Shown here: in pieces, positions 48,863-49,075 of the stretch | Numbering within the stretch: the stretch's first letter is position 1 | How the letters are laid out: each line of letters starts with the position of its first letter | Assembly (NCBI RefSeq): GCF_045037415.1 | Contig: NZ_CP173438.1 | Direction: 5' to 3' (one strand) | DNA length: 64,000 bases | From: Escherichia coli | GTDB taxonomy: Bacteria > Pseudomonadota > Gammaproteobacteria > Enterobacterales > Enterobacteriaceae | The notes under the pieces: generated by a model | Seen by the model: only the letters and a program-made list of their open reading frames with translations | The model's database searches: none | Told to the model about the DNA's origin: nothing | Program-made: the position numbers and the translations under genes

Positions 48863-49075
48863 AACTGTAACCTTCGAATTATGGAGTCAGAGACAATCTC
48901 AGACACGAATACTTCTATCATATCACTACACGGCGTTGGCTTCAGCCATTCGCCAAAAGTGAGATTGATGGACGTTATTTATCCTGAATTTTGCAGAAGT
49001 GTTAACGCGTCATCTCGTCGCGACCTAGAAGTTTGGGTAATATGTGCTGGAATTTGCCCTGTCTGGAGAATCGCA

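Follow-up and report, generated by a model that had tools for sequence, protein, structure and literature searches.

Is an Escherichia coli chromosome that has a K-12-type LPS core locus, and no htrL (yibB) beside it, an unusual mosaic? The question comes from an earlier note on the 64-kb stretch of DNA analysed here (hereafter, the window), which pointed to the short distance between hldD and kbl and combined it with the K-12-type outer-core genes nearby. The finding was read as unusual because K-12 had been taken as the reference. Here we examine the region between the two genes in the window, in MG1655, in other enterobacterial species and across complete E. coli genomes.

In the window, hldD (rfaD/gmhD), which encodes the 310-aa ADP-L-glycero-D-manno-heptose 6-epimerase and is the first gene of hldD-waaF-waaC, occupies 47930..48862 on the minus strand. 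On the plus strand, kbl (glycine C-acetyltransferase, also 2-amino-3-ketobutyrate CoA ligase; 398 aa; 49076..50272) begins with an ATG at 49076 (MRGEFYQQ...) and is followed by tdh (L-threonine 3-dehydrogenase; 50282..51307, plus strand), assigned from the open reading frame (ORF) list, the annotation and the comparison with MG1655. The sequence and the ORF list confirm that the start codons of hldD and kbl are 213 bp apart, separated by a divergent, gene-free intergenic region at 48863..49075 in which the ORF list holds no credible ORF. An Rfam scan of 48600-49300 gave zero matches at E = 1 or better. When the K-12 (MG1655) HtrL protein was searched by tblastn against the whole 64-kb window, no HtrL-like sequence was found (best E = 1.2), and there is no gene of the HtrL_YibB family (PF09612 / TIGR02192) between hldD and kbl, as the earlier note had stated. 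Further downstream, waaH (UDP-glucuronate:LPS(HepIII) glycosyltransferase; 51546-52580) is intact in the window; it is annotated as frameshifted in the O157:H7 strain 9234.

The earlier note's statement that K-12 has an AT-rich gene at this place also proved right. In MG1655 the spacer is 1,435 bp long, with htrL (b3618, 858 bp) lying between kbl (b3617) and rfaD/hldD (b3619), in the same orientation as kbl and pointing away from hldD. K-12 therefore does not have the 213-bp spacer, and the alignment with MG1655 bears out a real difference. By BLAST, window positions 47930-48910 are colinear with K-12 at 96.3% identity and positions 48972-50272 at 95.7%, with K-12 homology resuming at 48972; hldD is 96.1% identical to MG1655 rfaD, and kbl 95.5% identical to its orthologue. 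Within the spacer, the two chromosomes share the 48 bp adjoining hldD and the 104 bp adjoining kbl. What differs lies between: 61 bp of the window (48911..48971) have no BLAST alignment to K-12, and stand opposite a 1,283-bp K-12 segment of 36% G+C that comprises htrL, its promoter region and its terminator.

A difference of this kind might be produced by a collapsed or mis-joined assembly from which htrL had dropped out. We find this practically inconceivable: the window's junction recurs at 100% identity in several independent complete genomes, of which four (SK1144, AVS0528, AH21A060 and Esc6) were among the matches sampled, and when 5,426 complete E. coli genomes were searched with a 1.1-kb junction query, 3,465 of them showed it as one contiguous piece. 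Such an artefact can be regarded as already refuted. The same query was split in two places in 1,959 genomes, which constitute the htrL set.

To which of the two states the ancestor belonged can be judged from outgroups. Using the Kbl protein of the window as query, we searched a set of genomes in which each bacterial species was represented once, and kept the best 80 loci, a set that included neither an E. coli representative nor E. fergusonii. In 78 of these 80 loci hldD and kbl were divergent neighbours, and in 67 of the 78 enterobacterial species with both genes the spacer measured 202-229 bp: 213 bp in E. albertii, 202 bp in Salmonella enterica subsp. arizonae and diarizonae, and 212-219 bp in Citrobacter, Enterobacter, Klebsiella, Kosakonia, Kluyvera, Buttiauxella and Cedecea. 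The short spacers of 66 other enterobacterial species are colinear with that of the window and align with it end to end. The window thus shows the arrangement found in other genera (divergent neighbours, about 200-230 bp apart, alignable over the full length), and its spacer has the length class, the conserved blocks and the orientation of those of E. albertii, Salmonella, Citrobacter, Enterobacter, Klebsiella, Kosakonia, Buttiauxella, Cedecea and others, from which it differs by ordinary sequence divergence only. Among the best 80 loci, htrL occurred at the same spot only sporadically, in Escherichia sp. MOD1-EC7003 (96% amino-acid identity) and in three Citrobacter genomes (79-85%). The 61 bp in the centre of the window's spacer match the short spacer of E. 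albertii at 56 of 61 positions and that of strain 536 at 50 of 61, and match any htrL-bearing haplotype at 25 of 61 at most. From the outgroup lengths, the end-to-end alignment and the E. albertii-like centre, we infer that the 213-bp spacer is the ancestral enterobacterial arrangement and that K-12 carries an insertion. The absence of htrL is thus not the unusual feature that the earlier note took it for; the short spacer would be the ancestral state and not the product of a loss.

The opposite polarity would require an ancestor with both a K-12-type waa locus and htrL, as in MG1655, from which the cassette was deleted in an ST131-like lineage. A linked ancestor is conceivable, given that the K-12-type outer core occurs together with htrL in 451 genomes, and deletions do occur, since the genome PKF8 retains only a 220-bp remnant of the cassette. 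Yet the spacer of the window is of full length, free of any scar and colinear with outgroup spacers, and its hldD is 99-100% identical to that of 536, a B2 strain with an R1 core and no htrL. Its central 61 bp are of the ancestral type, unlike the junction of htrL haplotypes, so the deletion would need to have removed the cassette precisely and brought back the ancestral sequence as well. We therefore rejected a deletion from a K-12-like haplotype, and consider secondary loss extremely improbable. The reading that we hold to be very probable is that the spacer is ancestral, that the htrL cassette was inserted in some lineages, and that the B2, ST131-like flank of the window never received it.

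We then asked how htrL is distributed over the core types of E. coli. Chimeric queries were built from the htrL segment and about 4 kb of type-specific DNA adjoining waaL, so that a single place reaches at least 80% coverage only where the two parts lie about 3 kb from each other. The resulting counts derive from coverage thresholds and a piece-joining rule rather than from per-genome tables, which leaves room for miscounts in classes smaller than about 30 genomes, and the totals for R1 and R4 were estimated by sampling the hit lists at even spacing. The K-12 core was found in 1,031 genomes, 451 of them with htrL. Effectively all of the approximately 1,364 R3 genomes carry the gene (1,359 joined and 5 unjoined); the genomes with either R3 or htrL number 1,959, the size of the htrL set itself, which implies that effectively every R3 genome has htrL. 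It was present in 138 of an estimated 1,800 or so R1 genomes, in at most 9 of an estimated 720 or so R4 genomes, a class small enough to be miscounted, and in none of the 496 R2 genomes, where the chimeric queries did not reveal a second place for htrL either.

These numbers do not support the view of htrL as a K-12-specific flanking gene. It is carried by 1,959 of 5,424 complete E. coli genomes, and only 451 of these are of the K-12 type; across the types R1-R4 and K-12, the gene is not confined to the last. Nor is a K-12-type core without htrL unusual, being the state of 580 of the 1,031 K-12-type genomes. R3-core E. coli (O157:H7, O111) have a kbl-yibB-rfaD region whose flanks are orthologous to those of the window, and between them the same cassette as K-12 (99.8% identical), which the window lacks; their outer core is different. 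Strains with the R2 core (about 500 genomes; e.g., PE15) have a hldD-kbl haplotype of their own, only about 91% identical to the window, and the R2 import seems, from this divergence, to extend through hldD into kbl.

Which parts of the window's core locus are of the K-12 type? The outer-core block (37734..45901, 33% G+C) consists of waaS, waaB, waaO, waaJ, waaY, waaZ and waaU on the plus strand and waaL on the minus strand, named after the annotation of an identical region in SK1144, where the genes appear in order as rfaS, waaB, waaO, rfaJ, rfaY, waaZ, waaU and waaL, and hldD as rfaD. The gene set, the gene order and the presence of a K-12-type waaL all identify it as a K-12-type outer core, in agreement with the earlier note; the order matches that of MG1655 and the genes are 91.6-97.8% identical (waaB 91.6%, waaS 93.6%, waaU 95.8%). 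An ORF of 80 aa runs antisense to waaL (44835-45077, plus strand); its position and length match yibX, annotated in MG1655 as a gene for a small protein, and it is conserved in the ST131-type locus.

The genes on both sides of this block are of other types. The waaQ-waaG-waaP genes (34728..37697, plus strand) share only 70%, 80% and 81% identity with those of MG1655, whose divergent alleles are not found in the window. We considered whether the window carries an exotic allele here, and rejected it: 4,469 genomes match the window allele at 95% identity or more, which makes it the common one in E. coli and leaves K-12 and R2 as outliers. The divergent allele is found in only 950 genomes, a number that matches the htrL-positive K-12-type genomes plus R2, and the matches listed are K-12 laboratory strains. 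Since waaQGP were not used for outer-core typing, the window remains of the K-12 core type though its locus is not MG1655-like throughout. On the other side, waaC (45911-46870, minus strand) and waaF (46874-47920, minus strand) are of the B2 backbone type and share 97-100% identity with strain 536. Measured in 250-bp bins, hldD agrees with this B2 strain (R1 core) at 98.8-100% and with K-12 at 94-97%. Over waaC-waaF-hldD and from tdh to gpmM, identity to 536 is mostly 98-100%, with a few bins at 96-97% and a patchier kbl, compared with 91-99% to K-12. The patches are local: two bins of kbl (within 49250-50000) fall to 90.8-95.2% against 536 while their neighbours stand at 97-100%, and two bins of tdh (within 50500-51000) are at 91-93% against K-12 where 536 shows 99.6-100%. 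They look like small recombination mosaics.

Several genomes identify the lineage. The waaY-waaL segment is at least 99% identical to the window in 548 genomes, ST131-labelled strains included, and 100% identical in "O25b:H4-ST131 strain ST131" and others; with a K-12-based query, JJ2434, "ST-131" and other ST131-type strains share the value of 96.8% and the htrL-less pattern. SK1144, with its identical junction, is listed as phylogroup B2 (PMC12366417). The assignment to ST131 is made by identity to labelled genomes, no MLST locus having been identified in the 64-kb window. A K-12-type core has been reported in 43.6% of B2 strains, with a strong ST131 association (PMC13293308), and for ST131 it was published by Szijarto et al. 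(2012, FEMS Microbiol Lett 332:131), as cited in PMC5823992. The waa-hldD-kbl region of ST131 and of B2 strains with the K-12 core has the same gene order, likewise lacks htrL, and shows no detectable difference from the window. The absence of htrL in ST131 is not mentioned in those parts of the K-12-core literature that we examined, yet it is visible in every deposited genome. The ST131-type locus as a whole is a hybrid in which inner-core genes of the common type are joined to an outer core of the K-12 type.

Judged by these identities, the window is a B2, ST131-like chromosome, whose hldD-kbl flank would never have received the cassette, and its K-12 character is confined to waaS-waaL, at 37.7-45.9 kb. 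The description of a mosaic accordingly stands in so far as a K-12-type waaS-waaL block sits in a B2 backbone; it does not stand as something unusual, since a locus of the same kind has been published for ST131. A htrL-less junction next to a K-12-type core is a real, ordinary and already known polymorphism.

Such a block may suggest that the K-12-type outer core was imported recently, from a K-12-like donor of phylogroup A into B2, with an end point that fell short of htrL. The K-12-like DNA is indeed limited to about 37.7-45.9 kb, between B2-type waaC/waaF/hldD and common-type waaQGP, which is the pattern of a cassette exchange. The block is, however, 2-8% diverged from MG1655, thus arguing against a recent import and excluding a recent K-12-like donor. 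Moreover, an import would refine the account of an ancestral spacer rather than replace it. We give a recent import of this kind very little credence, and retain the reading of an ancestral spacer in a flank that the cassette never reached.

We next describe the cassette itself. MG1655 HtrL is a full-length member of the Pfam family HtrL_YibB / TIGR02192, scoring 435.9 bits on PF09612. Proteins of the HtrL_YibB family are described as being of unknown function and as occurring near LPS and LOS loci (PMC4172580). A sequence search of the PDB with HtrL returned chance matches only, with E above 0.2. In the K-12 segment, a promoter-like site (TATACA-18-TATAAT, with TG upstream) lies about 30 bp before the htrL ATG, and a hairpin with a 14-bp stem, followed by a T run, comes directly after the stop codon and constitutes a terminator. 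The segment hence looks like an AT-rich cassette, about 1.2 kb long and self-contained in that it brings along both a promoter-like site and a terminator. In K-12, O157, Escherichia sp. and Citrobacter it lies at the equivalent of 48952..48971, a stretch of about 20 bp that the conservation profile and the junction alignments identify as the least conserved of the spacer. The insertion spot is flanked by the conserved CTTCAGCCATTC block and by a block starting with ACGT(T/G)ATTTAT, i.e., it falls between the divergent promoters predicted below. When the K-12 cassette was searched for repeats together with its junctions, neither terminal inverted repeats nor a target-site duplication came to light, thus providing no evidence for transposition or site-specific integration. 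The one pair of note, a perfect inverted repeat of 11 bp, was judged to be due to chance.

In E. coli and Citrobacter, the haplotypes with htrL have a distinctive left junction in common (GTCTGTAATCATACCATCACAT...), which suggests a single origin of the cassette, with subsequent transfer. Between K-12 (phylogroup A) and O157:H7, htrL differs at 2 of 858 positions (99.8% identical), compared with 17/933 in hldD, 17/1,197 in kbl and 49/1,026 in tdh. The low divergence relative to the flanks suggests a recent horizontal spread within E. coli, although it could result partly from selection rather than from recent transfer. In the scenario that we propose, the cassette would have been inserted in some lineages into the poorly conserved centre of the spacer, between the two promoters, and would then have spread in E. 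coli by homologous recombination together with neighbouring waa haplotypes, reaching all R3 strains, K-12-type strains of phylogroup A and a smaller part of the R1 strains; recombination is the probable route.

The ancestral spacer itself appears to be a compact divergent control region, with a promoter and leader for hldD-waaF-waaC on one strand and a promoter for kbl-tdh on the other. A generic scan of the spacer for sigma-70 promoters and terminators called nothing, and our promoter assignments therefore rest on conservation across species. On the hldD side, the sequence TGnTATGAT (48917..48925, minus strand) fits the consensus of an extended -10 element; its TG and TATGAT are invariant in 71 of 71 distinct hldD leader sequences, htrL-bearing haplotypes included, while the base between them varies. 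It is likely to act as this element for the hldD-waaF-waaC operon. A further block, CTTCAGCCATTC (GAATGGCTGAAG when read on the hldD strand; 48940..48951, minus strand), lies 17 bp upstream of it, conserved across the 67 short spacers and retained in htrL-bearing haplotypes; GAATGGCTGAAG may be the -35, or else an upstream element, of the hldD promoter. Reviews report that the transcription of gmhD(htrM)-waaF-waaC is heat-induced (PMC8745692).

The hldD leader also contains a conserved inverted repeat (48886..48904, minus strand), which reads GTCTGAGA-TTG-TCTCTGAC on the hldD strand. Across 71 enterobacterial sequences it has 8 pairs, with 85% of cells paired and compensatory (double) changes in 5 pairs; none of 500 shuffles reached the observed values, and slid registers scored lower. 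RNAalifold recovered the core of the stem. The repeat could form a hairpin in the mRNA, or could be a palindromic operator. The htrM/rfaD promoter was reportedly mapped by Raina and Georgopoulos in 1991.

On the kbl side, the blocks TTTGGGTAATATGTGC and GTCATCTCGT precede the ribosome-binding site. The former, which is at least 90% conserved across species, contains the hexamer TAATAT (49038..49043, plus strand), 33 bp upstream of the kbl ATG, a candidate -10 of kbl-tdh by consensus and position. All the conserved blocks are kept in both htrL-positive and htrL-negative haplotypes, and for this reason the insertion of htrL is expected to leave both predicted core promoters intact.

This part of the spacer has also received other DNA. 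Citrobacter youngae and two further species of the genus have a different insert, of 1.6 kb, at the equivalent of 48952-48971. It encodes a waaB-like GT4 glycosyltransferase of 383 aa, whose best NCBIfam match is the LPS 1,6-galactosyltransferase (WaaB family), at 383 bits, just below the 385-bit cut-off. The variable centre of the spacer may thus be a recurrent insertion site, for htrL in Escherichia and Citrobacter and for a waaB-like gene in Citrobacter youngae. Citrobacter freundii M-21 has a spacer of 2,710 bp that includes htrL and about 1.4 kb of further DNA without a convincing ORF. Spacers of 340 bp at four loci and of 442 bp at one contain inserts of about 125 bp with palindromic cores, e.g., CCCCAGTCACTTAC...GTAAGCTCCTGGGGATTC; these appear to resemble ERIC/IRU elements. 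At one of the 340-bp loci the insert adjoins a duplicated TTTAGG(G)TAATAT, which includes the putative kbl -10.

The linkage between htrL and core type is near all-or-none, with the gene in effectively all R3 genomes and in none of R2, and htrL lies about 3 kb from waaL. A broader reading would be that accessory LPS genes have landed repeatedly at the centre of the spacer across the Enterobacteriaceae, and that the linkage reflects a functional coupling of HtrL with particular core structures and not just physical proximity; we regard this as speculative and rather unlikely. If such a coupling were true, the K-12-type core of ST131 would differ chemically from the core of MG1655.

Our results correct a K-12-centred expectation: at hldD-kbl, MG1655 represents the derived state, and the window the ancestral and majority state. 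In ST131, "K-12 core" refers to the waaS-waaL block only. The presence of htrL is not a valid sign of the K-12 core type, and is instead nearly diagnostic of R3 and of the phylogroup-A K-12-type locus. Should HtrL modify LPS, the lack of the gene in ST131 could be relevant to antibodies directed against the core or to phage receptors.
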